The notes under the pieces are model-generated. The model worked only from the letters and a program-made list of their open reading frames with translations, ran no database searches and was not told the origin of the DNA. Below, one piece after another: positions 1,401-17,721 of a DNA stretch of 64,000 bases. Within the stretch, counting starts at the first letter, position 1. Each line of letters begins with the position of its first letter. The stretch is from Escherichia phage Ecwhy_1. Where the stretch lies: the sequence record MH791411.1; one strand, 5' to 3'. A program made the translations under genes and the position numbers.

Positions 1401-1409
1401 TCTTTTTTG

Positions 1410-3182: not shown

Positions 3183-3193
3183 TGATGTAAACT

Positions 3194-3222
3194 ATTATAC
3201 AGTACTAAAATACTTTGTCAAA
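3194..3222 (-). promoter_or_regulatory. sigma70-like promoter TTGACA-N17-TATAAT (example of about 40 similar units)
   Basis: Reverse strand reads TTGACAAAGTATTTTAGTACTGTATAAT; AGTACT in spacer. Confidence 0.6.
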
Positions 3223-3227
3223 TACTT

Positions 3228-3635: not shown

Positions 3636-3718
3636 GATTTTATTCCTTATTGTATTGGGGAGAACTATTCTCCCCTTGATGTAAACTATTATACAGTACT
3701 GATATACTTTGTCAATAC

Positions 3719-3940
3719 TTAATTACGTTTAAAATGATATGTGCCTTTATCATCCTGTACGCCCCATACTGATTTACCATCAACACCAGTGAAGCCGGAT
3801 TGTAATTCAATATGGAAACCATTATTATCAACTACAAAAACTTTTTTATTTTCATCCCGATAACATTGATATTCTGAATCAACATTAAAGGCCGCATCAT
3901 TCAGACGATTGGAAGCGTAAATGCAAGTCATTGTAGTCAT
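3719..3940 (-). CDS. hypothetical protein (73 aa)
   Basis: Track ORF trimmed to MTTMTC start; promoter+hairpin upstream. Confidence 0.55.
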   Translation of the reverse strand: MTTMTCIYASNRLNDAAFNVDSEYQCYRDENKKVFVVDNNGFHIELQSGFTGVDGKSVWGVQDDKGTYHFKRN

Positions 3941-4164
3941 GATTTTATTCCTTAATATACCAGGGAGAACCATTCCCCCTCTCGATATAAAACATTATAC
4001 TTGATTCTAAGTACAATGCAAGTACTTTTTTAAAAATAGTTTTCAGTACTGAATACTTATATAATAGATACACTTCCGCACCCTATGGGTCAGTGAGTTA
4101 TCTCTCAATGGATATATAATAGCAAAGGGACTGACCGGAGTCAATCCCTTTTTTTAATCTTTTT

Positions 4165-4749
4165 TTATCGTGTTACCTTACTTGCTGCCACATCACGCTT
4201 TTTATAGTACTGATTCCAGATATTGCTGGTTAAACCGTAATCAAGTACTTTAATAAGTCCATTACGATCCTGGCCGATATTCTGTTTTCTGATATCTCTT
4301 ATCGTTAGTGTTGATAATGTATCATCAACGTGTTGTAGTGCATCAGCAAAGCGGTGCTGGCGTTCGATTGCATTACGTTTAATATTGTACTTTAATTCAT
4401 TGCACGCGTTTACGTGCTTCACACTGCCTTTGCTTGCAGTACTCAACCGATCCATAACGATAAACATATTATCAGGATCGCATAAATGCATATGCACCTT
4501 TGCAAAGTACTGTTTCAATTGAGGGCGGTCATAGTCTAAAAAATTCCATACCTTACATTCAGTTTCATTTTGTTCTACACCCGCATCACAATTCGCGACC
4601 TTAATCACTAACCGATCATTTAAAGCGAAAACTATACGGGAAGAACCAGCACCGATGATCTCCAGGCCAGCTAACCGACAAGCTGAAAGGATCTCTTTGT
4701 TGGTTTCCATTTCTGACAGTGTACGGATGAATTTAGTATAATTACGCAT
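4165..4749 (-). CDS. protein kinase-like protein (194 aa)
   Basis: Trimmed to MRNYTKF start with SD AAGGAG; motifs IGAGSSRIV (Gly loop), VIKV (Lys), DIRKQN (catalytic-loop-like), DYG (DFG-like). Confidence 0.5.
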   Translation of the reverse strand: MRNYTKFIRTLSEMETNKEILSACRLAGLEIIGAGSSRIVFALNDRLVIKVANCDAGVEQNETECKVWNFLDYDRPQLKQYFAKVHMHLCDPDNMFIVMDRLSTASKGSVKHVNACNELKYNIKRNAIERQHRFADALQHVDDTLSTLTIRDIRKQNIGQDRNGLIKVLDYGLTSNIWNQYYKKRDVAASKVTR

Positions 4750-4780
4750 TGCATGTTCTCCTTGAGTTAATGAAACTATA

Positions 4781-5023
4781 TTACAGTACTTTACTATCAA
4801 TGGCAACTACTTTTTTAACATTAACGGCGTGGATCACTTCCTTCGTGTTTTTAGTACTGAATACTTTCGCCGCTCCTTGTTCGACCGTGATACGATAGCG
4901 ACCATTAACATCAACCATATTAATAAAGTCCGGCGTGCTGAATGGTGTTGTTTTACATTTGAGTACTGTTAACAGTTCCACCAGCGATGTAGTTTCTTTG
5001 ATACGTTTTTCTAAAGTAATCAT
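4781..5023 (-). CDS. hypothetical protein (80 aa)
   Basis: Trimmed to MITLEK start; TTGACA-N17-TACTAT and SD GGGGGAAAC upstream. Confidence 0.55.
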   Translation of the reverse strand: MITLEKRIKETTSLVELLTVLKCKTTPFSTPDFINMVDVNGRYRITVEQGAAKVFSTKNTKEVIHAVNVKKVVAIDSKVL

Positions 5024-5080
5024 TTTGTTTCCCCCGTGTTGGTATGTACATATAGTACTAAAACATTTGAGTACTGTCAA

Positions 5081-5299
5081 TTAGATAATATTATATTTCT
5101 TAAAATAAAATGCGTCCTGTGTTGGTTGATACTCGATACCGTTACCGTTATTGACTTCAACTAATAAACCTTTGTCAATTAGTTTTTTAATAGTACGATA
5201 CCCTTGTTGAAAATTGGTAAAATGTGAATCATTACGAAAGGTATAACCGTGCTTAACTGCTTCATCAATAGTTTTCTTTTCGATTTTAGATAATTTCAT
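5081..5299 (-). CDS. hypothetical protein (72 aa)
   Basis: Trimmed to MKLSKI start; promoter/leader near-identical to that of 4781-5023. Confidence 0.55.
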   Translation of the reverse strand: MKLSKIEKKTIDEAVKHGYTFRNDSHFTNFQQGYRTIKKLIDKGLLVEVNNGNGIEYQPTQDAFYFKKYNII

Positions 5300-5352
5300 T
5301 TTGTTTCTCCCGTGTTGGTATGTGTACATAGTACTAAAACAATTGAGTACTG

Positions 5353-5607
5353 TCAACGTGATATTAGTTTTATTTTCTTATTGTATTGTTGATGCTCATA
5401 AAGGTTTATCTTTCCTGTGTTCTCGATTACTATCCTGTTGTTAGTGTCCACGTCGATTACACGCAGTTTCCCGTTGCTTAACTTCCTAGGTAATAGGTTA
5501 CCATTAATAAACTCATTAGCAAGCTGTACGGCCTTTGTGATGATTCTCTGAGGTGCTTTATAGTGTACCCGTAAGATGTTATCTTTATATAGTTGAACCT
5601 TAATCAT
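5353..5607 (-). CDS. hypothetical protein (84 aa)
   Basis: ORF; SD AGGA; follows an intrinsic terminator. Confidence 0.55.
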   Translation of the reverse strand: MIKVQLYKDNILRVHYKAPQRIITKAVQLANEFINGNLLPRKLSNGKLRVIDVDTNNRIVIENTGKINLYEHQQYNKKIKLISR

Positions 5608-5620
5608 TTTGTTTGTCCTA

Positions 5621-5647
5621 TAAAAAAGGCGGGAACTGATCCCGCCG
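5621..5647 (-). terminator. intrinsic terminator
   Basis: Hairpin GGCGGGATCAGTTCCCGCC + TTTTTTAT on - strand. Confidence 0.6.
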
Positions 5648-5668
5648 TGTTGTTAGTACTGCAAGTTA

Positions 5669-6064
5669 TTAGATAACCTGGCGGCGTTTACTGTATACTG
5701 TTACACGATTACCCTTACGATCATGTCGGATCTCTTTCTGGTTGCGAATCAGTTCACTTGGACGCTTAAGGTTTGCCAGGTGATCCGCGTGAGTCCATGC
5801 GGTGTGGTTTACCTGTACTTTGATATCAGAATCAGCGATAAACTCATCTTGTGCGTCAAGTATTGCCGCCAGCATATCCGCTCGTTTTAGTTCTGCTGCT
5901 GTCAGTACTGGCTCAGGTGAATTCACAATATCAGAGATTTCTTTGAACTGTACGGCCCAGCGTTGACCTTTCGTTGCATCTTTGCCCATGTCTTTAAATG
6001 CTGCTCCTTCCTCGCGTGCAACAATACGGGCAGCTTCACGGGTAGCGTAGAATTTAGTAATCAT
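5669..6064 (-). CDS. hypothetical protein (131 aa), paralog of 19079-19345
   Basis: ORF; shared motifs KFYATREAARIVAR..FKDMG and DRKGNRVTVY; TTGACA-N17-TATAAT upstream. Confidence 0.6.
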   Translation of the reverse strand: MITKFYATREAARIVAREEGAAFKDMGKDATKGQRWAVQFKEISDIVNSPEPVLTAAELKRADMLAAILDAQDEFIADSDIKVQVNHTAWTHADHLANLKRPSELIRNQKEIRHDRKGNRVTVYSKRRQVI

Positions 6065-6159
6065 GGTATACATCCTATTAGTTGAGTTAGTACTACAAGT
6101 TAGAGTCTATTATAAAGTACTATCTGGGCAATGTCAAATAGTACTTTAAATGGATTCTA

Positions 6160-6483
6160 TTACATGTCTTTCTTACGTTTTACATCGTGGTAGCGAACTG
6201 TTATTTCTTTGTTGATCTCTTCCTCGATGCGATGAATAACTTTTTCTTTCGGGTTGAAACCTATAACGGTTTCTTTAATGATCTCCAAGCCCGTGTATTC
6301 GCCTTGTGTACCGTAACCGTATGTAAAGGTTTCGTGTCCCAGGTCTTCCCAGCGGTCGCCAATTAACGCAGACACGTAGCAAGAGTGGTAAGTATTGCCG
6401 TGTGAATCAGTCCACCGATTAACGTTAATGTCAAAGGAGGTTACAATTTTCAATTCTACTTTCTGGGCAAGGATCATAGCCAT
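6160..6483 (-). CDS. hypothetical protein (107 aa), paralog of 13003-13326
   Basis: ORF; shared motif RWTDSHGNTYHSC..FTYGY; promoter+hairpin upstream. Confidence 0.6.
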   Translation of the reverse strand: MAMILAQKVELKIVTSFDINVNRWTDSHGNTYHSCYVSALIGDRWEDLGHETFTYGYGTQGEYTGLEIIKETVIGFNPKEKVIHRIEEEINKEITVRYHDVKRKKDM

Positions 6484-6570
6484 TTTTATTTCTCTCTCTT
6501 TGTTAGGAGGGGAACCATTCCCCTCGCTTGATGTAAACTATTATACAGTACTAAGATACTTTGTCAATAC

Positions 6571-6753
6571 TTATTTTTTGGAAAGTTTACGCATTAATTC
6601 TACGCTTTCTTGTGAACGTTTTGCTACCTGGCAAGCTGTATGGGCAGTAAACATTTTTGTATAGTCTGACGCTTTGCCACCGAACCGAGCGGCACGTTCA
6701 CGGGCACTTGGAACTAATACTATTTCTTTATTACAGATAGTGCACTTAGCCAT
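6571..6753 (-). CDS. hypothetical small protein (60 aa)
   Basis: Trimmed to MAKCTICNKE start; promoter/leader duplicated from the 6160-6483 gene. Confidence 0.5.
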   Translation of the reverse strand: MAKCTICNKEIVLVPSARERAARFGGKASDYTKMFTAHTACQVAKRSQESVELMRKLSKK

Positions 6754-6841
6754 TTTTATTTCTCTCTCTTTGTTAGGAGGGGAACCGTTTCCCCTCACTT
6801 GATGTAAACTATTATACAGTACTAAGATACTTTGTCAATAC

Positions 6842-7117
6842 TTAAGTATTGTAAATGTCGTGAATAGTGATAAAGTTTTTACGACCGTAAACATGTAAAT
6901 CAGTATCAATGTAGTGCTTATCAAGTACATCCTCGACGCTTAAAGACGTGTCGTGAATATCTTCATAAAATTGTGGATCAACAATCGTGCTTAAGTCATC
7001 TGGCGTTAACTTATCGTTAAGGCATTGAACCGCCTGGATATCTGCTTCACGTTTCCATTGTTCCAGATTAGTAGTCAGTACTTGCTCGATTTCGTTAGCT
7101 GTAAGTAAAGTCCGCAT
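6842..7117 (-). CDS. hypothetical protein (91 aa)
   Basis: ORF; SD AAGGAAAC; tandem promoters with long conserved leader upstream. Confidence 0.6.
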   Translation of the reverse strand: MRTLLTANEIEQVLTTNLEQWKREADIQAVQCLNDKLTPDDLSTIVDPQFYEDIHDTSLSVEDVLDKHYIDTDLHVYGRKNFITIHDIYNT

Positions 7118-7185
7118 TTTAATGTTTCCTTATCAGTGGTTGATGTAAGTATTATACTCGTTTACTTTCTATTGTCAAACTATTT

Positions 7186-7262
7186 TATCAGGGGAGTTTT
7201 TCGTATGTCTTACTCCTGGACTACTTAACGGGGTTACTTATTTCGTTCCCCGTCCTGATGTA
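7186..7262 (-). promoter_or_regulatory. conserved ~75-nt structured leader, copy 1
   Basis: Near-identical to 18400-18478, related to 14990-15060. Confidence 0.5.
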
Positions 7263-7432
7263 AAACATTATACTTGATTCTAAGTACAATGCAAGTACTT
7301 TTTTAAAAATAGTTTTCAGTACTAGCCACCAGCAAACAATAGATACATTTATGCACCCTGTGGGCTAATTTGTTTCTATGCGTATATAATAGCAAAGGGA
7401 CTGACCGGAGTCAATCCCTTTTTCAAATATTT

Positions 7433-7582
7433 TTAAACTTCTTTCGGGTTGCGATATGTGATAGCGTTCGGGTACATTTGTTTAATGTTATTCCATGCCT
7501 GGTTAACATTATAACCACTTGATCGAATCAGTTGGTTATTACCGACACCTTGAAACACTACTTCAAATAAGAATTCTTTCAT
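7433..7582 (-). CDS. hypothetical small protein (49 aa, not in ORF track)
   Basis: ATG overlaps stop of upstream gene (ATGA); SD GAGG. Confidence 0.35.
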   Translation of the reverse strand: MKEFLFEVVFQGVGNNQLIRSSGYNVNQAWNNIKQMYPNAITYRNPKEV

Positions 7583-7752
7583 GCTTTCACCTCTCGATCT
7601 GCTTTGCCTTTACGCCAGGCCGTTGCTAATTGTTCGCGTTGCCATAAGTCGAGTGATACGTAAAGTTTTGCATTATCACCCTTCGGATATTCGCCAGTAG
7701 TACCAATCCGATAAAACAGATCTTTCAGTACTGTTAATTCTACCTGGACCAT
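7579..7752 (-). CDS. hypothetical small protein (57 aa)
   Basis: Trimmed to MVQVEL start; promoter+hairpin upstream. Confidence 0.5.
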   Translation of the reverse strand: MVQVELTVLKDLFYRIGTTGEYPKGDNAKLYVSLDLWQREQLATAWRKGKADREVKA

Positions 7753-7839
7753 TATACTTTCCTCTTTGTTAGGAGGGGAACTATTCCCCTTCCGATATAA
7801 AACATTATACACTTTATTCAGTACTGTGCAAGTACTTTT

Positions 7840-8052
7840 TTAATCTTTCAGCCAATGATCCTGAATGAATTTTTCACCGGAACCTTGCTGCATTGATTGT
7901 AACAGACGTTCGCGATGAGCGGCGGCGAATTGCTCAGTACTATGCGTTACACCTGGTTGATATCTGGATTCACCATTTGGGGCGATGTATTGTACATCCC
8001 ACGGTTTTTCGTTAGTATCAGACCATTTACGAACGATTAGTTGACCTTGCAT
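7840..8052 (-). CDS. hypothetical protein (70 aa)
   Basis: ORF; SD AAGAGGAAAG; promoter + hairpin GGGGAGAATCATTTCTCCCC. Confidence 0.6.
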   Translation of the reverse strand: MQGQLIVRKWSDTNEKPWDVQYIAPNGESRYQPGVTHSTEQFAAAHRERLLQSMQQGSGEKFIQDHWLKD

Positions 8053-8135
8053 TTTTCTTTCCTCTTAGTGGGGAGAATCATTTCTCCCCTTCATGTAAAC
8101 TATTATACAGTACTGGATTGCATTGTCAATAGTTT

Positions 8136-8459
8136 TTATTCACCTTGTTTGAATATAGTTTTCTCCATTGATTCCATGATTGCAACCAATACAGCATGGA
8201 TCTCACTTAACGCGGCATCACTAAAAGCATTAATGAATAGGCAATCATTCTCGCGAATATTTTTAATGTACTTATCAGCAGTGGTTGCGAATTCATTCAA
8301 CGGCAGATCAAATGCTTTATCCCATAATGGATGGCGTAACTGTAACAGTACTGGATTATCACGATCACCAGGGGAAAACGTACCAGTGATGAAACATACG
8401 CCCGGAATACTTTCGAACTGGCAACGGACTTCCTTTGTGATAGTAGTATGAATGTACAT
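8136..8459 (-). CDS. hypothetical protein (107 aa)
   Basis: ORF; SD AGAGGATAAC. Confidence 0.55.
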   Translation of the reverse strand: MYIHTTITKEVRCQFESIPGVCFITGTFSPGDRDNPVLLQLRHPLWDKAFDLPLNEFATTADKYIKNIRENDCLFINAFSDAALSEIHAVLVAIMESMEKTIFKQGE

Positions 8460-8486
8460 TTATTGTTATCCTCTATTAAATTAATA

Positions 8487-8675
8487 TTACAGTTTATGAA
8501 TTAATTCTTTATCTAAGCGATAGCGTACATTATTAATGGTAACAGCATTATTTTTAATGCTACGCTGTACGGGTCCACCAGCAATAACAAACGTTGCTTT
8601 ATTGCCCCGAACAATGATAGCACTTCCAGGATTACCGAAATCATCTTGTACTAAAATACTTGATAAGTTTTCCAT
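8487..8675 (-). CDS. hypothetical small protein (62 aa)
   Basis: ORF; SD AAGAGGAAAT; promoter+hairpin upstream. Confidence 0.55.
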   Translation of the reverse strand: MENLSSILVQDDFGNPGSAIIVRGNKATFVIAGGPVQRSIKNNAVTINNVRYRLDKELIHKL

Positions 8676-8753
8676 TTTTATTTCCTCTTAGTAGGGGAAG
8701 ATGTTTCCCCTTGATGCAAGTACTATAACAGTACTGAAAACTAAATGCAAGTA

Positions 8754-9110
8754 CTATGATAAAATCATGATAGGATATTCACTATCTATCAATACCTCGA
8801 ATCCGAAACCTTCGTACCATTCTTTAAGATTAAAGGCGTTATCTTCTCCCGTATCGCATTCTAAGATGATACAATCTGAATCATCGGCGGCATCAATAAA
8901 GGCATTCATTAATTCGTTACCTTCACCATTGCCCCGACTATCAGGATCAACATAAAGAGAATCAATAAACGCTACACGGTCATAATCAAGATCCGGTGCA
9001 ATGATTCCACGTTTAACAAACCAGTACTGCAATTGTGCTACTTTGCCCTGTACTTGATAGCCAGTGATCTCGCCATTGTCAGTAGTACGCGTGATATGTT
9101 GTATTCCCAT
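8754..9110 (-). CDS. GNAT-like acetyltransferase (118 aa), tentative
   Basis: Motifs RGNGEGN (R-x-x-G-x-G) and NAFNLKEWYEGFGF resemble GNAT motifs A/B; SD GAGGATAG. Confidence 0.45.
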   Translation of the reverse strand: MGIQHITRTTDNGEITGYQVQGKVAQLQYWFVKRGIIAPDLDYDRVAFIDSLYVDPDSRGNGEGNELMNAFIDAADDSDCIILECDTGEDNAFNLKEWYEGFGFEVLIDSEYPIMILS

Positions 9111-9173
9111 GATTACTATCCTCAGTTAAGATATAAAACATTATACACTATCTTTCAGTACTGTCAATACTTT

Positions 9174-9431
9174 TTATCTCATAGATCTATGCCAACAATT
9201 ACGCGGATCTCTTTTAAAAGTACTATCATGATCCTCCTGGCAAGTAATACAATACATGCACCCTATAACGGCCTGGCGTCGATTCTCAGGGATTTTATCG
9301 CCGCAGTCGAGGCAATGTACAAGTGATTCTCTTTGTGCGTTAATTTGCTTTCTAGCGTGGTTAACGGCGGCCTGAATCACTGCATGAATCTCGTCTTGTT
9401 CGGCCCCGTCTTTCGCGTATCCTACTGCCAT
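9174..9431 (-). CDS. TraR/DksA-like C4 zinc-finger protein (85 aa)
   Basis: C-x2-C...C-x2-C with CGDKIPENRR; SD GAGG. Confidence 0.55.
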   Translation of the reverse strand: MAVGYAKDGAEQDEIHAVIQAAVNHARKQINAQRESLVHCLDCGDKIPENRRQAVIGCMYCITCQEDHDSTFKRDPRNCWHRSMR

Positions 9432-9589
9432 TATTTTAACCTCATTATAAAAATACTATAGTACTGTAATGCTACAATAATACTACTAGTGTTTATCTTA
9501 TTCAAACCATATGATACTACATATCCACCAGCATTACCACGAATAGTAACGCCTTTGTACTGTCTATATAAATTCAACTGCGTATATTG

Positions 9590-9668
9590 CCTTTGATCAA
9601 GAATTGATCAGAATTATACGCCTTATGCTAAATTGATCCAGTACTTTTTTGATCATTTATTGATCGAT
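9590..9668. repeat. cluster of five TTGATC motifs (GATC sites)
   Basis: TTGATCAAGAATTGATCAGAA..AATTGATCC..TTTTTTGATCATTTATTGATCG. Confidence 0.5.
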
Positions 9669-9760
9669 ATTATATAGTTACATTTGTGCACCCTATGGGT
9701 TAGTGACGTTCTCGTCTTGATGTAAGTATTATGCCAGTACTGGAGGATATTGTCAATAGA

Positions 9761-9964
9761 TTATTTTAATTTTTTTCTGTCATTGATTAATGCTTTCAGT
9801 ACTATACTAATAACTTGCAATGATTCATCAATGACAATGAAATTATTCTCTTTCATTAGATGATAGTTACCATTGATTGTATATTCTAACGAGTACTGTT
9901 TACGTTTAATTTTTGATAATGTTTCTATTTGTTTTTGTACTGATTTCATGCTAATCATTGTCAA
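9761..9964 (-). CDS. hypothetical small protein (67 aa)
   Basis: ORF; weak SD AGGA. Confidence 0.45.
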   Translation of the reverse strand: MTMISMKSVQKQIETLSKIKRKQYSLEYTINGNYHLMKENNFIVIDESLQVISIVLKALINDRKKLK

Positions 9965-10064
9965 ACGTCCTGTAACGCATTCTAACGAGATAAACGGTTT
10001 AGTACTGGCATTGTATAGGGTAAATGATTAAAGCCCACCAGCGTTAACCAGTGGGCTATAATAT

Positions 10065-10208
10065 TACATCTTGCGGATAATCTTAACAGTATCTTTCACC
10101 GATTTACCGTTTTGCTGACATTGCTCGATCATCGCGTATTGTTCTGCGGTCAGATCCTCGCCAGTTTTTGCCAGTACTGCGTCGATGAATGAATCCAGTG
10201 CGATCATT
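10065..10208 (-). CDS. hypothetical small protein (~47 aa, not in track)
   Basis: TTGACA-N17-TATAAT, SD AAGAGAGAAAT, ATG; coordinates approximate. Confidence 0.35.
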
Positions 10209-10297
10209 TTATTTCTCTCTTAGGTTAAGTTAACTACTGTTTATAAAACTTATTATACAGTACTATCAATCTATGTCAATAGTACTGGTAATATATT

Positions 10298-10477
10298 TTA
10301 GCGGTAGTCGTCGTATGCTTTATTCACCTGGCGAATATAACTTTCAAAGGCTTCGTCTACCGTTTCATACTCCCGAACATAATCACCATATGAAACTACA
10401 TACATACCTTTTTGATCTTCAAACGTCATGATGATAGAATCCAGACCAACGATTTCAGTTTTTGCGATGATAGCCAT
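10298..10477 (-). CDS. hypothetical small protein (59 aa, not in track)
   Basis: TTGACA-N17-CATAAT, SD AAGGAA, ATG. Confidence 0.4.
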   Translation of the reverse strand: MAIIAKTEIVGLDSIIMTFEDQKGMYVVSYGDYVREYETVDEAFESYIRQVNKAYDDYR

Positions 10478-10560
10478 TTTTTAATTCCTTAGTAGTGTAG
10501 TTGATAAAAGTTATTATGTCAGTACTATCAAACTATGTCAATAGTACTGTGATAATATTT

Positions 10561-10773
10561 TTAGTTAATGATAGTCAGTGTAAAATTGTAATCACCGCAG
10601 CGATATAGCACGTTATTCCCAAATGTCCCAACTAATCGCACATCACACAAAACGCCGGTTTTTTCTTTTACTTCCTTGATACTTGTAACTCCTGTAATAT
10701 CTTTATTAAAGTATTCATGATCTGAAAATAAAACTTGTTTTGCATTTTTTAATTTCGACCGGATATTAGCCAT
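10561..10773 (-). CDS. hypothetical protein (70 aa)
   Basis: ORF; SD AGAGAGAAAAC; promoter + hairpin GGGGAGAAAAACTTCTCCCC. Confidence 0.55.
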   Translation of the reverse strand: MANIRSKLKNAKQVLFSDHEYFNKDITGVTSIKEVKEKTGVLCDVRLVGTFGNNVLYRCGDYNFTLTIIN

Positions 10774-10869
10774 TTTGTTTTCTCTCTCTGTTAGTGGGGA
10801 GAAGTTTTTCTCCCCTTGATGTAAACTATTATACAGTACTATAATCTATTGTCAAACTATTTTTTTATA

Positions 10870-11211
10870 TTATTCGAAATCTTCTGGACCGGACTGATAA
10901 TCATCTTCACCGTATGCACTTTCTAACCGCTCGCCAGTGTGATCATCAGTTAGTGAGTCATCCTCATAGTTCACGTCTACGCCAGTGATGTAAAACTGGC
11001 TATCGTCTGGATCATTGAAATTAATTTTCTGTATGTTTACAATAACTGTATTGATGCCCAGGACACCGCCATCAGCCGTTACAAAGTACTGATAGTTTTC
11101 GCAACCGCCTGAATTGAAACCGTAATTAATTTCGGCCCGACCATCATTTAAACGCAGTGCCTGGGCGATGATTTCGTTTTCAAAGTTAGATTGAGCAATT
11201 GAGATAGTCAT
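10870..11211 (-). CDS. hypothetical protein (113 aa)
   Basis: Trimmed to MTISIA start; promoter+hairpin upstream. Confidence 0.6.
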   Translation of the reverse strand: MTISIAQSNFENEIIAQALRLNDGRAEINYGFNSGGCENYQYFVTADGGVLGINTVIVNIQKINFNDPDDSQFYITGVDVNYEDDSLTDDHTGERLESAYGEDDYQSGPEDFE

Positions 11212-11663
11212 GATTTGTTTCCTTATTACCAGGGGAAACCGTTTCCCCCTCTCGATGTAAAACATTATACGCTTATTGAGATAGTTTGCAAGTACTTTCT
11301 ACAAATACTTTTAAAATAGTTTTCAGTACTCAATACTCATATAATAGATACACTTATGCACCCTGTGGGCTAGTGAGCTATCTCTCAATGAATATATAAT
11401 AGCAAAATGGCTGACCGGAGTCAACCACTTTTTTCATTTATTTTTAGCTTTTAGAATCGCCGCCTTTCGCGTCATGCCTTGCTTGATGTATTCTTGTACT
11501 TTCGCTTTACGTGCATTCGCTTTATTTGCTTTCGTAAATGCCGAACAACTTTTATAGTTTAAACCTGTTGGATTCATTTAAATCACCATAAAGAATAGAT
11601 AGGTTACTAACAACGCCGCGATCAATGCACCGACCAGGGCCGAACTATAGTAAGCTAATGTTT

Positions 11664-11816
11664 TCATTTTTTAGCCTGAAAGTAATGTTTAATTTGAGCG
11701 GCGGTCAGTGCACAATTACGCAGGAAGTTTTCTGTATAACTGCGGCGAGTACTGAAAGAGAATTGACCTTTGCCGTTACCGATAGTAACATCAAACCGAG
11801 CGTTGTATTGTTTCAT
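11664..11816 (-). CDS. hypothetical small protein (50 aa)
   Basis: Trimmed to MKQYNARF start; SD AGGAGAATC; promoter+hairpin. Confidence 0.45.
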   Translation of the reverse strand: MKQYNARFDVTIGNGKGQFSFSTRRSYTENFLRNCALTAAQIKHYFQAKK

Positions 11817-11897
11817 TTTGATTCTCCTGTTATTGGGGAGAATCATTTCTCCCCTTCATGTAAAACATTATACAGTACTAAAAACTAATTGCAAGTA

Positions 11898-12044
11898 CTA
11901 TTTTTTAGATTTACGCAAACTTTCTACCATCTCAGGAGTAAGGCCCGGCGGGTAGGAAACTACTTCATCAACGAAACGTAAAGGGAATACCCCAGCGAAA
12001 GGTGAACGTGCTTTCTTAGTATTACTCTTTTTTGATGCTTTCAT
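11898..12044 (-). CDS. hypothetical small basic protein (48 aa, not in track)
   Basis: SD AAGGAATATG; promoter+hairpin upstream. Confidence 0.4.
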   Translation of the reverse strand: MKASKKSNTKKARSPFAGVFPLRFVDEVVSYPPGLTPEMVESLRKSKK

Positions 12045-12113
12045 TTCATATTCCTTAATTAGTGGGGAGAATCATTTCTCCCCTTCATGTAAAACATTAT
12101 ACGCGTTTAAAAA

Positions 12114-12323
12114 CTAATTGCAAGTACTATTTGAAAGTAAATGCTCATACGCTGCATTAACTACGTTTTCAATAACCGACTGTACAGAAAGATCCCCCAC
12201 GTCCTGGCTATAGTAGAAATCGCTTACAGTGGTGTCATCGTATGCAAATACTTTACCAGGTACTGCATCAATCACATACATATTAACCTTTAAGATGTCG
12301 ATCTTATCCTGTACAGTAAGCAT
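12114..12323 (-). CDS. hypothetical protein (69 aa)
   Basis: ORF; SD AAAGG. Confidence 0.5.
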   Translation of the reverse strand: MLTVQDKIDILKVNMYVIDAVPGKVFAYDDTTVSDFYYSQDVGDLSVQSVIENVVNAAYEHLLSNSTCN

Positions 12324-12328
12324 ATTAA

Positions 12329-12601
12329 TTAACCTTTTAAGTACTGGCTTAAGTAGTCTTGTTGATCTTCGGTGATTGCAGCCATCTTCCCTAGTACTGG
12401 ATTAATGATATAATCCCCTGTAACGTCCTGTAACGCATTCTCAGGCGGTTTAACGGCTGGGGTAGCCATAGCCATCGCCTGGACTTGTTCGACGCTATAA
12501 CGCTCATATAGGCGGCATTCTTCCGGTGTTAACATAGCATCAATGCGTTTCATTGGTTTAATGATGCTTTCAACTTCATTCAGTACTTGATTAACGTTCA
12601 T
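12329..12601 (-). CDS. hypothetical protein (90 aa)
   Basis: ORF; weak SD. Confidence 0.55.
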   Translation of the reverse strand: MNVNQVLNEVESIIKPMKRIDAMLTPEECRLYERYSVEQVQAMAMATPAVKPPENALQDVTGDYIINPVLGKMAAITEDQQDYLSQYLKG

Positions 12602-12652
12602 GGTATAATCCCCAATATAAGCGGCCTGAATCGACCGCTAACGATGTTTTGA

Positions 12653-12922
12653 TTAATAGGTGTATGGTTGACGTTCAAACAATGATTGCACGTTGTACGC
12701 CCCACTAATGGGCTTTGCTGGTAAATCAATTTTATATTGCTCACGCTTAAAGATAATAAAACGGCAATTGTTTTTAACATCAAAATTGATTGAACGTTCC
12801 AGTAGTTTACCATCGTGCACAAATACAAGATAACCGCTCGCTACTTGTTTTGTAGTACTGGTTGCAACCATAGACCGCCGAACATGTGTACCTGCGTCGA
12901 TTAAAGTACTGATATTTTTCAT
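12653..12922 (-). CDS. hypothetical protein (89 aa)
   Basis: ORF; SD AAGAGGAACG; preferred over overlapping 12598-12828. Confidence 0.55.
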   Translation of the reverse strand: MKNISTLIDAGTHVRRSMVATSTTKQVASGYLVFVHDGKLLERSINFDVKNNCRFIIFKREQYKIDLPAKPISGAYNVQSLFERQPYTY

Positions 12923-13002
12923 TATACGTTCCTCTTAAGTTAATTTAATTTCTTTCCCCTATGCAGACACTATATCAAAGTATCTGCATAAAGTAAAGCT
13001 AA

Positions 13003-13326
13003 TTAAAGATCTTTTTTGCGTTTAACATTCTGTACAGTACAATGCAACGGGATATTAAGATCATTGCACAAACGAGTAAGGGAGGTTTCATCAGTATTAA
13101 GCCCGTCTACTGATTCCTTTAATAGATCTAACGCCGTTTGTTGATATGCATCTTCATAGCCATAAGTAAATGATTCAACCGCCAGATCATTCAAACCGTT
13201 ATCCAGTTCGACGCTTACATGACAAGAATGATAAGTATTGCCATATGAATCAGTCCAACGTTTACCGTCAACATTGATTGCACGGATTGCAGCCAGGGAA
13301 ACGGTGTTAATGATAGTTTTAGCCAT
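13003..13326 (-). CDS. hypothetical protein (107 aa), paralog of 6160-6483
   Basis: ORF; SD AAGGAATAC; TTGACA-N17-CATAAT upstream. Confidence 0.6.
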   Translation of the reverse strand: MAKTIINTVSLAAIRAINVDGKRWTDSYGNTYHSCHVSVELDNGLNDLAVESFTYGYEDAYQQTALDLLKESVDGLNTDETSLTRLCNDLNIPLHCTVQNVKRKKDL

Positions 13327-13415
13327 TTTTGTATTCCTTAAATTAATATGTTGTCTTGATAAAATCTATTATGCCAGTACTATCAAACTATGTCAATAGT
13401 ACTGTGATAATATTT

Positions 13416-13628
13416 TTACTTACTTTCTTTCGCTGCTTTGTGCGTTGCCACTGCCATAACCACATCAGCACGAACAAAGTTTTTAACCGTGTCGCTGTAA
13501 TAATTGATCGCTTCATCAATATCTGCGAACATCCGATACATACCGCACCACGATACTTTATAACCTGCTTTCACTTCTTCCAGCTTAACCAGTGATTTGT
13601 TAACTTTGATTTTAGTAATGATAGCCAT
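13416..13628 (-). CDS. hypothetical protein (70 aa)
   Basis: ORF; SD GAGGAAAAT; promoter duplicated from 13003 gene. Confidence 0.55.
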   Translation of the reverse strand: MAIITKIKVNKSLVKLEEVKAGYKVSWCGMYRMFADIDEAINYYSDTVKNFVRADVVMAVATHKAAKESK

Positions 13629-13707
13629 TTTATTTTCCTCAGTTGTCTTGATAAAATCTATTATGCCAGTACTATCAAACTATGTCAATAGCACTGTGAT
13701 AATATTT

Positions 13708-13851
13708 TTACTTACTTTTTGCTTTCTTGATTGCTTCCACCTGGTCGGCCCATTCTTTACCCCATACTTGTAAATTATAATGGTACTGGCAAAGAGCAAC
13801 GCCCCGCTTTAAACCCGTAATAGATTTCTGACCACATTGACAAGTTTTCAT
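13708..13851 (-). CDS. hypothetical small Cys-containing protein (47 aa, not in track)
   Basis: SD AAGGAAAC; promoter + hairpin upstream. Confidence 0.4.
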   Translation of the reverse strand: MKTCQCGQKSITGLKRGVALCQYHYNLQVWGKEWADQVEAIKKAKSK

Positions 13852-13937
13852 TTTAGTTTCCTTGTAGTGGGGAGAACCATTTTCTCCCCTTGATGTAATG
13901 TATTATACTTTATTCGATTTACTTTGCAAGTACTTTT

Positions 13938-14165
13938 TTAATTTAATTCATCAAGGCAAAGGATACGCTCAACGCCCAAATCAGTTAAACTAATCGACGG
14001 CACTTGATAGGTTTCAATGTATGCTACACTTGCCCACTGACCGAACTCATTAACGGCCCAGGTATTCATTGCATTTTGCAATTCCGCACCTTCCTTGTTG
14101 GTAATGACTGCAACTACTTGTTCGTTGCCAGTAGTACCAGATACGCGAGTAATGATAATAGCCAT
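13938..14165 (-). CDS. hypothetical protein (75 aa)
   Basis: Trimmed to MAIIIT start; promoter+hairpin. Confidence 0.55.
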   Translation of the reverse strand: MAIIITRVSGTTGNEQVVAVITNKEGAELQNAMNTWAVNEFGQWASVAYIETYQVPSISLTDLGVERILCLDELN

Positions 14166-14401
14166 TGTTTTGATTCCTTTGATTTGGAAGGAGAACCGTT
14201 TCCCCCTCTCGATGTAAAACATTATACGCTAATCTCTTAATCGTGCAAGTACTTTTTATTACTTTTTGCAAAATACTTTAAACGCTCTCAATCGCGTTCT
14301 TACAGCCTTAACGCCACCAGCTAGGGCAATGCATCAGATAATCAGTTTAATGCGTTAGAATCGTTTCTAGGCGGTGCTGGTGGCATGGTAAACGATAAAC
14401 A

Positions 14402-14430
14402 CAAAAAAGCCCACCGTTTAAGGTGGGCTA
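14402..14430 (-). terminator. intrinsic terminator
   Basis: Hairpin AGCCCACC-TTAAAC-GGTGGGCT + TTTTTTGT on - strand. Confidence 0.65.
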
Positions 14431-14450
14431 GTGATTCAGTACTTTAATTG

Positions 14451-14933
14451 TTATGCTTCAACTTTGCGATGAGATTCGATCCATTCCTCGCGAGTCATAC
14501 CGCTGGCGTTAATCGCGTCCAGTACTACCGCAATGCAGTTACCACGCACCGGAATCAGATATTCTTCCCCGTTGTCCAGTACTACCGCTACGCGTTCCTG
14601 AATCCATTTTTTGGCTTTTACTTCTGGCTTGTCTTCCCCATACTTAACCGCCAGGGCTTTTTGTGCCATCTCTGTAACTACTTCCAGATCCAATCCAACT
14701 ACTGCCGCCTGAATACTTTCGATTGTTGCTTGTAGTTCTGCTTCACGGGCCGCCTTTGCCGCTTCAATTTCTGCCGCTTTATTTGCTTGTAGTTCTTTCG
14801 CAGTACTGTACGCGATGTTAAAATTATTGCGTACCGCTTTCATGGTATCGTTATCCAGTTCAGCCAGGATCTCAGCCGCGACGTTAGTTTCATTTGCTAC
14901 CAGTGCTTTGATGAATGATTTTACATTAGCCAT
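14451..14933 (-). CDS. hypothetical Ala/Glu-rich protein (160 aa)
   Basis: Trimmed to MANVKS start; SD GAGGA; long structured leader; terminator downstream. Confidence 0.6.
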   Translation of the reverse strand: MANVKSFIKALVANETNVAAEILAELDNDTMKAVRNNFNIAYSTAKELQANKAAEIEAAKAAREAELQATIESIQAAVVGLDLEVVTEMAQKALAVKYGEDKPEVKAKKWIQERVAVVLDNGEEYLIPVRGNCIAVVLDAINASGMTREEWIESHRKVEA

Positions 14934-14989
14934 TTTATAAATCCTCAATTAAAGTTTAGTTTACGTTTATTAGTGTATCAAAGTTTTCT

Positions 14990-15060
14990 CGACGTGTCCA
15001 GTTTTTCGTTCGACTTACTGGCGGTCTACTTAGTGCTCCCCGTCTTGATGTAATACATTC
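14990..15060 (-). promoter_or_regulatory. conserved structured leader, copy 2 (diverged)
   Basis: Shares ACATCAAGACGGGGA..AAGTA..CGAAAAACT with copies 1 and 3. Confidence 0.4.
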
Positions 15061-15130
15061 TACGCTTTTCTGCGGTAATGTCAACTACTTTCTTAAAACT
15101 ATTTTCAAAGTATCTCAGTACTACGATACT

Positions 15131-15160
15131 ACAAAAACAAAAAAGCCCACCAGGTGGGCT
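15131..15160 (-). terminator. intrinsic terminator
   Basis: Hairpin AGCCCACCTGGTGGGCT + T-run on - strand. Confidence 0.6.
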
Positions 15161-15166
15161 ATGTAC

Positions 15167-15397
15167 TTAATCAGTGAGTAAAATATTAAACACTTTACCA
15201 TTTAACGTTATTGGTGCACTGCTACCAGGCACAAGATCCGTTAGTATACCTGCAATCGCTTTATCATTGGCTACCTTTCCAGTGTCCAACAGTACTACAG
15301 TACTGATAAGATTAACGCTCGTTTCAATATCATAATGCACGGCGTTAAGTAGTTGTGTAGTACTGCTTTCGTTAAGTAAAACAATTCGCTTAGTCAT
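15167..15397 (-). CDS. hypothetical protein (76 aa)
   Basis: ORF; terminator downstream. Confidence 0.5.
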   Translation of the reverse strand: MTKRIVLLNESSTTQLLNAVHYDIETSVNLISTVVLLDTGKVANDKAIAGILTDLVPGSSAPITLNGKVFNILLTD

Positions 15398-15418
15398 GAT
15401 GTTACCCCGTAGTATCTA

Positions 15419-15718
15419 TCAACGGCAATTAATAACGCCGGTATGAGTTACTTTCTCGGTATCCATTACAGTGACCGAACCGCGTTTAGCACTGGCATCA
15501 TAATAAATTGTCGTGCTACCGTTTTCGTCTTCTTCATGGAACGGGCCGTTTTTAAATGCTTCCGGCTGGATCTCTAAATCCTTTAATACAATCTCGCCAG
15601 TTCTTTCATCGGTCATTGCAACAGTGCACTGAATGAATTTTTCACTACTTACATCTAATGACGCATTAACAGCGAAAGAGGAAACAGATAAAGCCAGGGC
15701 GATGATTGCAATTTTCAT
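15419..15718 (-). CDS. secreted protein (99 aa), predicted signal peptide
   Basis: N-terminus MKIAIIALALSVSSFAVNA; SD AAGGATAATC; promoter+hairpin. Confidence 0.6.
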   Translation of the reverse strand: MKIAIIALALSVSSFAVNASLDVSSEKFIQCTVAMTDERTGEIVLKDLEIQPEAFKNGPFHEEDENGSTTIYYDASAKRGSVTVMDTEKVTHTGVINCR

Positions 15719-15802
15719 TTGATTATCCTTAGTTACCAGGGGAAACCGTTTCCCCTTGCGATGTAAAATATTATACAGTACTAAAAACTAATTGCAAGTA
15801 CT

Positions 15803-16039
15803 TTATGATTTTTTATAAAACATTTCAGCAGTGATATTTTTACCCGTTGGCTGTACTTTATCCAGAATTTTTTGATGCCCTGGTCGTCCAAAGGAATATG
15901 ATCCGTAAACAGTAAACCAGTAGTTACCCTCAGTGTTTACATGTACAGCACAATAAGGAACACCACGCGATTCATCACTAGTAAAGTGTGATACCGTTCC
16001 CGTTACATTCGCAGACGTTGATTTGATTTGTTCGACCAT
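15803..16039 (-). CDS. hypothetical protein (78 aa)
   Basis: ORF; SD AAGGAATAAG; promoter+hairpin. Confidence 0.55.
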   Translation of the reverse strand: MVEQIKSTSANVTGTVSHFTSDESRGVPYCAVHVNTEGNYWFTVYGSYSFGRPGHQKILDKVQPTGKNITAEMFYKKS

Positions 16040-16148
16040 TTTCTTATTCCTTAGTTACCAGGGGAACCGCTCCCCCTATGCAAAACATTATACGCGTTTA
16101 AAAACTAATTGCAAGTATTTTAATAAAAAGTATTTGAAAAATAGTTGT

Positions 16149-16290
16149 TGACAAGTGCATCCAGTACTGGCATAATTACTACATCAAGACGAAACAGTCA
16201 CTAACCCACCGGGTGCCGAGATCCGTCTATTAAATGATTCAGTACTGAAAAAGTAACGGGGAGTTATTATCTCCCCGTGTTGTTATTTTG
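16149..16290 (+). ncRNA. candidate small RNA: + strand promoter plus about 100 nt ending at a bidirectional hairpin
   Basis: TTGACA (16149)-N17-CATAAT; leader ACATCAAGACGAAACAGTCACTAACCCACCGGGTGC; hairpin GGGGAG..CTCCCC at 16256-16278 + T-rich; no ORF. Confidence 0.35.
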
Positions 16291-16504
16291 TAAGGTATAA
16301 ACAGAAGTCGCCTTTATTTGCTACGCCGCCAGTGTAACGCGAGGAATAGTTAGAAACGTCCTGGACTTCTGCTATTACCAGGGTATCATCATTCAATTCG
16401 TCGCAGAAGCAAACGGCTGGATCTTGTACGCCGATTTTGTCGGCATGTTCCCGCATAGATTTAACCAGTGCTTCCAGTTGGGAAAGAGTAGTGATATTAG
16501 CCAT
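16283..16504 (-). CDS. hypothetical protein (73 aa)
   Basis: Trimmed to MANITT start; promoter+hairpin. Confidence 0.55.
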   Translation of the reverse strand: MANITTLSQLEALVKSMREHADKIGVQDPAVCFCDELNDDTLVIAEVQDVSNYSSRYTGGVANKGDFCLYLTK

Positions 16505-16588
16505 TTTATTTTCCTCATTACCAGGGAGAACCATTTCTCCCTTTGATGTAAACCATTATACAGTACTGAAAACTAATTGCAAGTACTT

Positions 16589-16777
16589 TTAATTAAATTC
16601 CATAAAATCATTTTCAACGTGCACAACAATCTGATTATTTTTAAAGGACGCAGAAAACTCTATACAATCATAAACCGCTTTTTCTGTTACCAGACTATGA
16701 GCACCAATCGGATTAATTGGGGATTGAATTGTTTCAATCTCGTTACCTTGTTCATTAACGATTAAAATATTAAACAT
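16589..16777 (-). CDS. hypothetical small protein (62 aa)
   Basis: ORF; SD CAGGAGTAAC. Confidence 0.5.
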   Translation of the reverse strand: MFNILIVNEQGNEIETIQSPINPIGAHSLVTEKAVYDCIEFSASFKNNQIVVHVENDFMEFN

Positions 16778-16816
16778 TGCCGTTACTCCTGGATAGTGTT
16801 AACTCGATATAAAGTA

Positions 16817-16999
16817 TTATACGCCTTTATTGCTTAGTGTCCAGTGATCACGCATCATACGCCCCGCACGATCCCAGCTAGTAGGCATGGGTATGCCTTG
16901 CAATTCGTTAGGGGAGATCTCGACCTCGATCCCTACATCAATAACAGTCATTCCAGCTTTCGCAGCTTGCTCGCGGATAACCTCAGATAATGTTGTCAT
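16817..16999 (-). CDS. hypothetical small protein (60 aa)
   Basis: ORF; SD CAGGAGC; leader duplicated with 16589 gene. Confidence 0.5.
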   Translation of the reverse strand: MTTLSEVIREQAAKAGMTVIDVGIEVEISPNELQGIPMPTSWDRAGRMMRDHWTLSNKGV

Positions 17000-17073
17000 G
17001 ATTAAAGCTCCTGGATAGTGTTAACTCGATATAAAGTATTATACAGTACTGAAAACTAATTGCAAGTACTTTT

Positions 17074-17334
17074 TTAATATTGTTTGTCGTCGTCTTCCTC
17101 GATGAATTGACCGACGAAATGATCTACTTTCGCTTTGAGGCTTTTATAATCTTCTTCTACTTCCGTTAAACGTTCCTGGTAGTATTCCAATGCTTCAAGA
17201 TACGCCGCCTCAGCAGTTTTTGCACGCATAGCTAAATTCATTCCACGCGTTTCATCAAATAGCCAATAACCATCGGTGCACTGGCTAATAGATAATGACT
17301 TGCTTAGTACTGTATAGCTAATTACTTTACTCAT
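17074..17334 (-). CDS. hypothetical protein (86 aa)
   Basis: ORF; SD GAGGGTTATC. Confidence 0.55.
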   Translation of the reverse strand: MSKVISYTVLSKSLSISQCTDGYWLFDETRGMNLAMRAKTAEAAYLEALEYYQERLTEVEEDYKSLKAKVDHFVGQFIEEDDDKQY

Positions 17335-17391
17335 TAGATAACCCTCAGTAAAGGCGGGAACTATTACCCGCCATTATCTCAGTACTGAATA

Positions 17392-17631
17392 TTACATTCC
17401 AACCATTGCAGCACGGATCGCAGTAGTGCTATACTTAAAGCCGTCCGGCGTTGTAGTAGTACCGTTGGCTTTTAATCTGCGGTACATACATTCCGCAGCA
17501 ATATCTTTAGTTCTACTTTGTGCGATGCAACTTTGAGCAAGCCGATACAATGACTCACCGTTATTAATCCAAAGGCTTACATTCCAATGAGTTTTGTTTT
17601 TGTGTCCGTTGTAAGTTTTAGTACTAGCCAT
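17392..17631 (-). CDS. hypothetical protein (79 aa), paralog of 19432-19671
   Basis: Trimmed to MASTKT start; shared motif GHKNKTHWNVSLWINN..PDGFKYSTTAIRAAMVGM. Confidence 0.6.
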   Translation of the reverse strand: MASTKTYNGHKNKTHWNVSLWINNGESLYRLAQSCIAQSRTKDIAAECMYRRLKANGTTTTPDGFKYSTTAIRAAMVGM

Positions 17632-17721
17632 TTTTAAATCCTCGTTTGAGCGGGGAACCACTCCCCGCCTCGATATAAAGTATTATACGCTTTTAAACTT
17701 AGTTTGCAAGTACTTTTTAAA

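Follow-up and report, generated by a model that had tools for sequence, protein, structure and literature searches.

Do the very short open reading frames (ORFs) that escape a gene track with a cutoff of 60 amino acids (aa) represent genuine phage genes and, if so, what might they be for? The question is raised by a stretch of 64,000 nucleotides (nt) from Escherichia phage Ecwhy_1 (sequence record MH791411.1), in its entirety referred to as the window, in which a preliminary description had singled out nine such ORFs, pointing out that small phage proteins are frequent host-takeover factors and are easily missed. Here we report that the signals and the codon-level conservation of these ORFs lie far beyond chance. 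It is probable that all nine are real small genes of an Asteriusvirus-type phage, and that seven of them belong to an array of autonomous cassettes in its direct terminal repeat (DTR).

The nine ORFs, labelled c1 to c9, are all present on the minus strand as claimed:

7433-7582, minus strand: c1, a 49-aa coding sequence with a GAGGT Shine-Dalgarno (SD) site and without a promoter of its own
10064-10207, minus strand: c2, a 47-aa acidic coding sequence, helical by eye, with a weaker AGAGAG SD site
10298-10477, minus strand: c3, a 59-aa acidic coding sequence
11898-12044, minus strand: c4, a 48-aa basic coding sequence (isoelectric point, pI, 10.3)
13708-13851, minus strand: c5, a 47-aa coding sequence with a CxC...CxxH motif, a putative zinc knuckle
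50159-50335, minus strand: c6, a 58-aa basic coding sequence, helical by eye, with an AAGGA SD site and without a promoter of its own
11434-11577, minus strand: c7, a 47-aa very basic coding sequence (pI 10.5) with a GGTGA SD site, third in its operon
11578-11667, minus strand: c8, a 29-aa hydrophobic coding sequence with one predicted membrane-spanning helix, second in the same operon
56280-56393, minus strand: c9, a 37-aa coding sequence with one predicted membrane-spanning helix and a GAGGT SD site

The positions given previously were exact for c1, c3, c4, c5 and c6 and 1 nt out for c2 (10065-10208); the approximate ranges for c7 (11470-11580), c8 (11580-11670) and c9 (56283-56396, a shift of 3 nt) are replaced by those above. 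The description of the candidates as having an SD site and often their own promoter and hairpin was accurate, with a good SD site at seven of the nine (AAGGA lying 7-9 nt 5' of c3, c4, c5 and c6) and an own promoter at five.

An open frame by itself is no evidence of a gene here, since 98 ORFs of 25 aa or more are spread over the six frames of an 8-kb region. We therefore rely on the comparison of Asteriusvirus loci, nine covering the first site and seven covering the second. All frames are intact, with start and stop unchanged, in every relative that carries the gene (6-9 relatives each), and the only change in length is a two-codon indel plus a one-codon stop shift in c7. Variable sites pooled over the nine ORFs number 30/18/92 at codon positions 1/2/3, and this concentration of substitutions at the third position is seen only in the claimed frames. 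The ratio of non-synonymous to synonymous differences per site (pN/pS) accordingly ranges from 0 to 0.41 in the claimed frames versus about 0.8-6 in the shifted frames, where computable. Individual values are 0.04 for c1 (intact in 9 relatives), 0.05 for c2, 0.09 for c3, 0.22 for c4, 0.10 for c5 and 0.20 for c8 (intact in 9 relatives), and c6 is intact in 7 relatives. Eight of the nine relatives carry a 69-73% identical allele of c7 with the two-codon indel (pN/pS 0.24-0.40), and six carry a 59% identical allele of c9 (pN/pS about 0.4 at a synonymous divergence, pS, of 0.7); taken together the divergent alleles of these two genes give 0.24-0.42. Loss of the frames in relatives had been named at the outset as the observation that would speak against the candidates; the frames are instead kept, and are under purifying selection. 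From this and the evidence that follows we conclude that all nine ORFs are real coding genes.

The same conclusion is suggested by comparisons beyond the genus, for which all phage records were searched by tblastn. Homologues in other genera or subfamilies, at 50-87% aa identity, were found for five of the nine ORFs. Those of c1 occur in Klebsiella RaK2-like phages (51-56% identity), those of c2 in Salmonella phages 7t3 and PHA46 and Klebsiella phage fENko-Kae01 (67%), and those of c6 in EJP2, Salmonella SE_PL and Erwinia Hallingskeid (50-60%). For the third ORF, c3, matches were obtained in 238 phage records, among them those of rV5-like Vequintavirus and Justusliebigvirus (73-78% identity), and c5 recurs in rV5-like and other ~140-155-kb coliphages at 81-87%. 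The searches returned no match outside Asteriusvirus for c4 (present in 24 records), c7 and c9. In the deep codon comparison of c1, c2, c3 and c5 the synonymous sites are near saturation, with 0.58-0.88 synonymous and 0.11-0.39 non-synonymous differences per site and a ratio of 0.16-0.44; the individual pN/pS values are 0.39 for c1 against Klebsiella phage Muenster, 0.25 for c2 against fENko-Kae01, 0.19 for c5 against A73, and 0.16 for c3 against Murica and alia (pS 0.7-0.8). The homologue of c1 lies in the annotated terminal repeat of Muenster and that of c2 within the annotated terminal repeat of fENko-Kae01. In the Muenster repeat the homologues of c1 and of its 57-aa partner gene (1201-1347 and 1767-1937) are separated from one another and their order is reversed, which shows that the genes of these repeats have been reshuffled from genus to genus.

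None of this makes the ORFs new, since close relatives carry them in public records as hypothetical proteins. Most or all of the orthologues carried by fEgEco12, G17 and 121Q are annotated as such, and other relatives annotate most of them. End-to-end matches to PHROG families (E 1e-14 to 1e-42) were obtained for c1 (37188), c2 (34103), c3 (9374), c6 (38182), c7 (29913) and c9 (35037), all six families carrying the label 'unknown function'; c8 has a weak match (phrog_32088, E = 0.006), and c4 and c5 match no PHROG family. The warning that such genes are easily missed holds for individual records, which leave unannotated c1 (RaK2, K64-1, RCIP0023), c4 (phAPEC6), c7 (slurp01) or c5 (Sharanji), but not for the genus at large, as most Asteriusvirus records annotate them and seven of the nine match a PHROG. 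A separate curiosity is the name 'tail fiber protein' given to the c2 orthologue of fEgEco12 (g027, locus 3765-3908, 47 aa). An error of automatic annotation is almost certain here, given that the other records all say hypothetical and no family search supports the label.

Where do these genes reside? By nucleotide identity and record taxonomy the source genome is a jumbo coliphage of the PBECO4/121Q/G17 type in the genus Asteriusvirus, whose members are jumbo myoviruses with genomes of ~350-385 kb. A megablast search with 7300-14000 returned 52 phage records, the best being fEgEco12 (98.4%), JNE01, JP4 and the PBECO4/121Q/G17 group, and 49800-56900 is 99% identical to other Asteriusvirus members. 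The DTR of fEgEco12 measures 20,993 bp, as confirmed by restriction digests (PMC13070987). In a blastn comparison of fEgEco12 positions 1-24000 and 346000-356000 with the window, record positions 1-20904 map in reverse onto window positions 21864-1, so that the following part of the window is essentially that repeat, reversed:

1-21864, minus strand: stretch matching the DTR of fEgEco12, the closest relative, by blastn; dense with small genes

Seven of the nine ORFs (c1-c5, c7 and c8) lie inside this stretch, whose gene content is a unidirectional array of very small genes, and c6 and c9 lie in unique sequence. At ~21000-22000 the GC skew and the coding strand both flip, matching the outer DTR end at 21864. 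A search of the window against Rfam gave no match, and the window contains no tRNAs.

The signals surrounding the ORFs, together with the neighbouring genes that share their transcription units, are as follows:

7579-7752, minus strand: 57-aa partner gene, first in the c1 operon (PHROG 10572), with a promoter-plus-hairpin unit at 7774-7841
7394-7421, minus strand: likely terminator hairpin of 12 bp directly 3' of c1, containing the -35 box TTGACT of the next promoter; a terminator is annotated at the G17 counterpart
10252-10279, minus strand: c2 promoter, TTGACA-16-TATAAT, 12/12 consensus matches
10032-10057, minus strand: terminator-like hairpin AGCCCAC...GTGGGCT beginning 7 nt past the c2 stop, with an ARNold terminator at the G17 counterpart
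10513-10541, minus strand: c3 promoter, TTGACA-17-CATAAT with an extended -10 TG, belonging to a 77-nt repeat family (D4) of 4 copies
12059-12132, minus strand: c4 promoter and 5'-untranslated region (5'-UTR) hairpin unit, with TTGCAA-16-TATAAT at 12096-12123 and the hairpin at 12064-12083 (repeat family D2)
13865-13938, minus strand: c5 promoter and 5'-UTR hairpin unit, with TTGCAA-16-TATAAT at 13902-13929 and the hairpin at 13869-13889
11664-11816, minus strand: 50-aa gene (PHROG 7119), first of the three-gene operon 50 aa-c8-c7, with its promoter at 11867-11894 and a hairpin at 11835-11854
11404-11431, minus strand: likely terminator hairpin directly 3' of c7, containing a -35 box TTGACT, with a terminator at the G17 counterpart
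56441-56477, minus strand: composite hairpin-plus-promoter 5' of c9, with the -35 box TTGACT (56465-56470) inside a stem-loop (about 56451-56477) and the -10 box TATAAT at 56441-56446

Sigma-70 promoters matching 10-12 of the 12 consensus positions thus precede c2, c3, c4, c5 and c9 (the last with TTGACT-18-TATAAT), and c1, c6, c7 and c8 are operon-internal. Within the letters ATGA the start of c1 overlaps the stop of the 57-aa gene that lies upstream, making c1 the second gene of a two-gene operon. The c8 start overlaps the stop of the 50-aa gene in the same manner, and c7 starts immediately after the c8 stop codon. A long, tightly packed and conserved minus-strand operon holds c6. In the window c9 heads a three-gene operon for membrane or secreted proteins, made up of c9, 56008-56271 and 55715-56011. 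Hairpins in the 5'-UTR precede c4, c5 and the 50-aa gene of the c8-c7 operon, and terminator-like hairpins follow c1, c2 and c7, as judged from the sequence and from the ARNold terminators annotated in G17, where terminators are also annotated on either side of the c9 orthologue.

The hairpins 5' of c4 and c5 are of a recurring GGGG...CCCC type and form part of a pattern that runs through the entire repeat. A search for a -10 box followed by a downstream stem-loop gave 21 matches in 768-20188, all on the minus strand, versus none in 100 shuffles, and 22 such units could be aligned over 735-20220, likewise on the minus strand (12059-12132 and 13865-13938 are examples). Their consensus reads AAAAAAGTACTTGCAA-N16-GTATAAT-nnTTTACAT-(stem-loop)-SD-ATG, in which GTATAAT is invariant and the stem starts 11-14 nt past the -10 box. 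In every unit the main stem is 6-9 bp long and the folding energy -11 to -16 kcal/mol (z-score -1.5 to -4.8), and the variants of the stem are compensatory (GGGGAGAA/TTCTCCCC, GGCGGGG/CCCCGC and AGCGGGAA/TTCCCGC). [quoted passage not shown] Overall the region contains seven perfect 12/12 sigma-70 sites and nine at 10-11/12, all on the coding strand; a second promoter type, TTGACA-17-CATAAT, is found without a hairpin in the four copies of the 77-nt repeat, and in three places, 3' of c1, 3' of c7 and 5' of c9, a hairpin encloses the -35 box.

Further features of the array deserve mention in their own right. The -10 sequence TATAATG makes an in-frame ATG, and ORF lists and some gene callers consequently extend genes through the hairpin with a shared prefix 'MFYIERGKRF...'; the ORF-list entries 10870-11265 and 13938-14222 have their true starts at 11211 and 14165, and the 57-aa database versions of c5 look like similar over-extensions. 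Another promoter unit of this family, at ~7180-7300 on the minus strand, has two hairpins after it but no ORF ahead of the promoter that comes next (7151-7178). A deletion may have left it behind as an orphan cassette, comparable to the gene-less tandem promoter at the c4 position in SD-15 and PBECO4. Six copies of the motif CCCAYAGGGTGCAYAARTGTA are present versus 0 expected, at 1317-1337, 4069-4089, 7344-7364, 9679-9699 and 11349-11369 on the minus strand and at 18608-18628 on the plus strand. The three aligned copies at 7344, 9679 and 11349 lie in ORF-free spacers ~25 nt 3' of their own promoter. These sites, for which Rfam holds no match, could be short non-coding transcripts or protein-binding sites.

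How mobile the cassettes are becomes apparent from a presence/absence matrix of 27 window genes in nine relatives. Single genes have been gained or lost (6571-6753, 8136-8459, 8754-9110, c4, 13416-13628 and c5), and others are swapped for 38-73% identical alleles within surroundings that are otherwise 95-100% identical. The c4 gene is bracketed by 74-nt direct repeats that are 92% identical (12059-12132 and 11830-11903); in 121Q c4 is precisely gone and exactly one repeat unit is left, and in SD-15 and PBECO4 a deletion extends from within the hairpin to near the c4 3' end. Similarly, the 70-aa gene 13416-13628 sits between 77-nt repeats of 99% identity and is missing in five of the nine relatives. 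Some cassettes are moreover shared with Vequintavirinae, Stephanstirmvirinae and other jumbo-phage genera. Phage A73, which is rV5-like, has this promoter-hairpin-SD unit ahead of its c5 homologue, ~95% identical (about 5/100 upstream positions differ), whereas the coding part is only about 80% identical, and a 3-kb stretch of A73 holds homologues of five window genes.

Two other loci also vary between relatives. A 48-aa ORF of uncertain coding status at 9431-9577 on the minus strand, with a TTG start and no clear SD site, overlaps with its end the start of a DksA-like gene; it is annotated in fEgEco12 and 121Q, and in five relatives its N-terminal 30 residues differ and the last 18 are identical. 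Downstream of c9, the window and fEgEco12 carry two genes (55715-56393 with c9), one for a multi-pass membrane protein of 87 aa and one for a protein of 98 aa whose N-terminus is signal-like, and G17, 121Q and PBECO4 are without these two genes and have a c9 allele only 59% identical. By this sequence comparison the c9 module is replaced as a whole between relatives.

The closest known counterparts of these units are the PeSLs (promoter-early stem-loops; Arbiol et al. 2010, Comeau et al. 2014) of T4-type phages, which unite an AT-rich tract with a consensus sigma-70 promoter, a stem-loop 'generally involving GGGG...CCCC', an SD site and a small ORF of unknown function; their stem-loop may precede the promoter, sit within it, overlap it or closely follow it, they are repeated over ~100 bp in hypervariable regions, they mediate insertion, deletion and replacement of the ORFs they flank, and terminator activity and mini-circle formation have been demonstrated for them (PMC2839356, PMC4122927). 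The units described here share every sequence-level feature, including repeats of ~70-100 nt and indels bounded by the units, and both subclasses are present, one having the stem-loop 3' of the -10 box and the other having it overlap the -35 box. They differ in that the published PeSLs come from T4-like phages with 160-250 kb, whereas here an array fills the long DTR of an Asteriusvirus, and in that the 22 units fix the stem-loop 11-14 nt past the -10 box, inside the transcript. Because PeSLs have been described only in T4-like phages, we term the units PeSL-like and do not count them as members. We regard it as an even chance that PeSL-like cassettes extend beyond the T4-type phages, organise the whole ~21-kb DTR and constitute a shared exchange system that moves small early genes between unrelated E. 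coli myoviruses of the Asteriusvirus, Vequintavirinae and Stephanstirmvirinae lineages (c5 with its whole promoter-hairpin-SD unit, and c3, being examples), the 5' hairpin then having both a regulatory and a recombinational role.

Other parallels are less complete. T5 and BF23 (PMC7472727, PMC10644984) likewise carry many small genes of unknown function, their pre-early genes, in a long DTR, present in two copies per packaged genome, and have their repeat genes read by sigma-70 RNA polymerase (RNAP), as is presumed for Asteriusvirus. What sets T5 apart is a repeat of about 10 kb that is the first part of the DNA to enter the cell when injection proceeds in two steps. In the RaK2-like jumbo phage CBB, predicted RpoD-like promoters with UP-like elements are concentrated 5' of short hypothetical ORFs, and early host-takeover genes have been proposed in a region perhaps running into the 22-kb terminal repeat; CBB, however, belongs to another genus, and a stem-loop past the -10 box and exchange at the level of cassettes are not described there (PMC5259590). 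Lambdoid-phage morons resemble the cassettes as single accessory genes with their own promoter and terminator, but lack conserved flanking repeats and are thought to be inserted by illegitimate recombination (PMC2839356), in contrast to the conserved repeats that form the flanks here. The papers on fEgEco12 (PMC13070987) and phAPEC6 make no mention of promoters or hairpins.

What do the encoded peptides look like? AlphaFold2 models, built on small alignments of database homologues, predict a beta-beta-alpha-beta fold for the basic c1 (pI 9.3; mean predicted local distance difference test, pLDDT, 93.6) and four beta strands followed by a C-terminal helix for c3 (pLDDT 94.7), suggesting that both are compact alpha/beta mini-domains. 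The c5 family comprises at least 105 clusters at 50% identity, with proteins mostly of 45-70 aa. Among 23 aligned members no variation is seen at C6 (the second Cys), C21 or H24, and the first Cys occurs at variable spacing, a pattern that fits a CCCH metal site and would make c5 a putative zinc-knuckle peptide. With one strongly hydrophobic stretch each (maximum Kyte-Doolittle 19-residue window 2.69 for c8 and 2.52 for c9) and a hydrophobic core kept in relatives, c8 and c9 are predicted to be single-pass membrane peptides, and the basic c4 and c7 could bind nucleic acid or a host protein. None of the nine peptides received a function from Pfam, NCBIfam or PHROG annotation, and phmmer searches of PDB sequences with c2, c5 and c6 gave no significant match. 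The c3 model found nothing in the PDB at E <= 0.001, its top fold matches, diadenylate cyclase domains, being partial overlaps that we take as chance; among viral models it matched only uncharacterised small phage proteins. No Pfam model exists for the c5 family, Pfam domains in longer c5 relatives were uninformative (a weak match came from one protein of 812 aa that has CapR-homology repeats), and cluster look-ups of c5 relatives led only to metagenomic hypothetical proteins. A paralogy of c3 with the 70-aa gene 13416-13628, suggested by a common MAII.K start and Y.V..G...EA, was dropped as BLASTP gave no alignment.

Taken together, the organisation of the repeat suggests how these genes might be used. 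A cassette consists of an AT-rich tract, a near-consensus sigma-70 promoter, often a GGGG...CCCC stem-loop, an SD site and 1-3 short ORFs, some cassettes closing with a terminator hairpin that also holds the next -35 box. By analogy with the pre-early region of T5, the host RNAP would transcribe the DTR genes right after DNA entry, and their products may be individually dispensable accessory proteins aimed at host or competitor targets in takeover, anti-defence or exclusion. Such a role is argued for by the position of the genes, their promoters, the turnover of cassettes and the sharing of genes among phages of the same host; timing and targets are presumed. The remaining two ORFs, c6 and c9, would be conserved small genes of other transcription units, with c9 heading a membrane-protein operon among virion genes. 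Host takeover, which the preliminary description had put forward, is a role that we infer; it would fit genes that are placed in the terminal repeat and served by consensus sigma-70 promoters. Outside the early block are c6 and c9, the latter lying between genes for virion proteins.

Several points weigh against this interpretation. Both the early timing and a two-step entry of the DNA would be analogies with T5. The GGGG...CCCC hairpin has no U-tract after its stem and, for this reason, could be a terminator, an attenuator, an mRNA stabiliser or a recombination site. Sequence-family, PDB sequence and fold searches assigned no function, and our literature search found no transcriptome or intracellular proteome for any Asteriusvirus, nor a promoter-mapping, early-protein or DNA-injection study for the genus. 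As regards the individual genes, substitutions in c6 within Asteriusvirus are too few for a stand-alone codon test, and c8 is only 29 aa long with a poor SD site; these two rest on somewhat less evidence than the other seven. Finally, c9 is flanked by two genes whose products are virion proteins in phAPEC6, and the mass-spectrometry table of the phAPEC6 virion has these neighbours of the c9 orthologue and not the orthologue itself, a gap that says little because small membrane peptides are hard to detect by this method.

Could the ORFs nonetheless be chance frames in AT-rich regulatory or spacer DNA, with database records and PHROGs merely echoing the over-calls of the same gene callers? The abundance of open frames in the region (the 98 noted above) would allow it, and gene-caller errors do occur, as witnessed by the N-terminal extensions through TATAATG, by plus-strand calls in the spacers of JP4 and SD-15 and by the 'tail fiber protein' label on c2. 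Chance frames would not, however, be expected to confine codon-structured substitutions to the claimed frames, to keep the protein as synonymous sites approach saturation, to limit the c7 indels to multiples of three or to have homologues in other genera and subfamilies, and they fit poorly with the confident compact folds of c1 and c3 and the conserved Cys/His ligands of c5. We consider this explanation exceedingly improbable and already refuted to a large extent. A more specific proposal, that c1 is an inhibitor of the host RNAP like Gp2 of T7, is unlikely as well, if not quite to that degree. T7 Gp2 on the E. coli RNAP (4lk0_M) is the second-best PDB match of the c1 model, with a TM-score of 0.66-0.68 and a Foldseek probability of 0.97, and c1 lies within the predicted early region; yet the Foldseek E value is 0.3 at 12% sequence identity, and ribosomal proteins and a virion protein of the crAss-like phage phicrAss001 score equally, indicating a common mini-fold. 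Gp2 acts via a negatively charged surface, whereas c1 is basic.

A tentative alternative, possible but rather less probable than the reading given above, accepts the genes as real and assigns them mainly to the phage's own programme or to competition between phages, and not to host shutdown, for instance as regulators of the early-to-middle switch, in superinfection exclusion or anti-defence, or as small assembly or membrane factors. Cassettes that vary among near-identical phages are what conditionally useful anti-defence or exclusion genes would lead one to expect. The same small genes, moreover, are found in different coliphage families that share E. coli as a host. The membrane peptides c8 and c9 point in the same direction, c9 being placed among virion genes at the head of an operon with two membrane or secreted proteins. 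In vB_Ec-M-J, genes near c9 are labelled 'immunity to superinfection' and 'membrane protein' and the c9 orthologue itself 'membrane protein', although these are labels only, and the analyses run found no support for the 'immunity to superinfection' label. On the other side, the two membrane proteins after c9 match no PHROG family, and nothing separates this alternative from host takeover. The picture that we favour thus remains that of real small genes, seven of them in autonomous DTR cassettes, with accessory products that would be directed at the host or at competitors.

In terms of annotation, all nine ORFs deserve gene calls, and a cutoff at 60 aa keeps a considerable part of what the DTR encodes out of sight. 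The gene finding itself is ordinary and would not surprise a phage specialist, as relatives already annotate the genes as hypothetical proteins. What the ORFs provide is a compact conserved set without assigned function, located where lytic phages usually keep their host-directed early functions; as several are common to different coliphage families, they are reasonable candidates for toxicity and anti-defence screens. The most interesting by-product is the PeSL-like layout of the whole DTR together with the complete cassettes shared with unrelated coliphages, and it is this cassette architecture that would explain why otherwise near-identical phages differ in gene content here.

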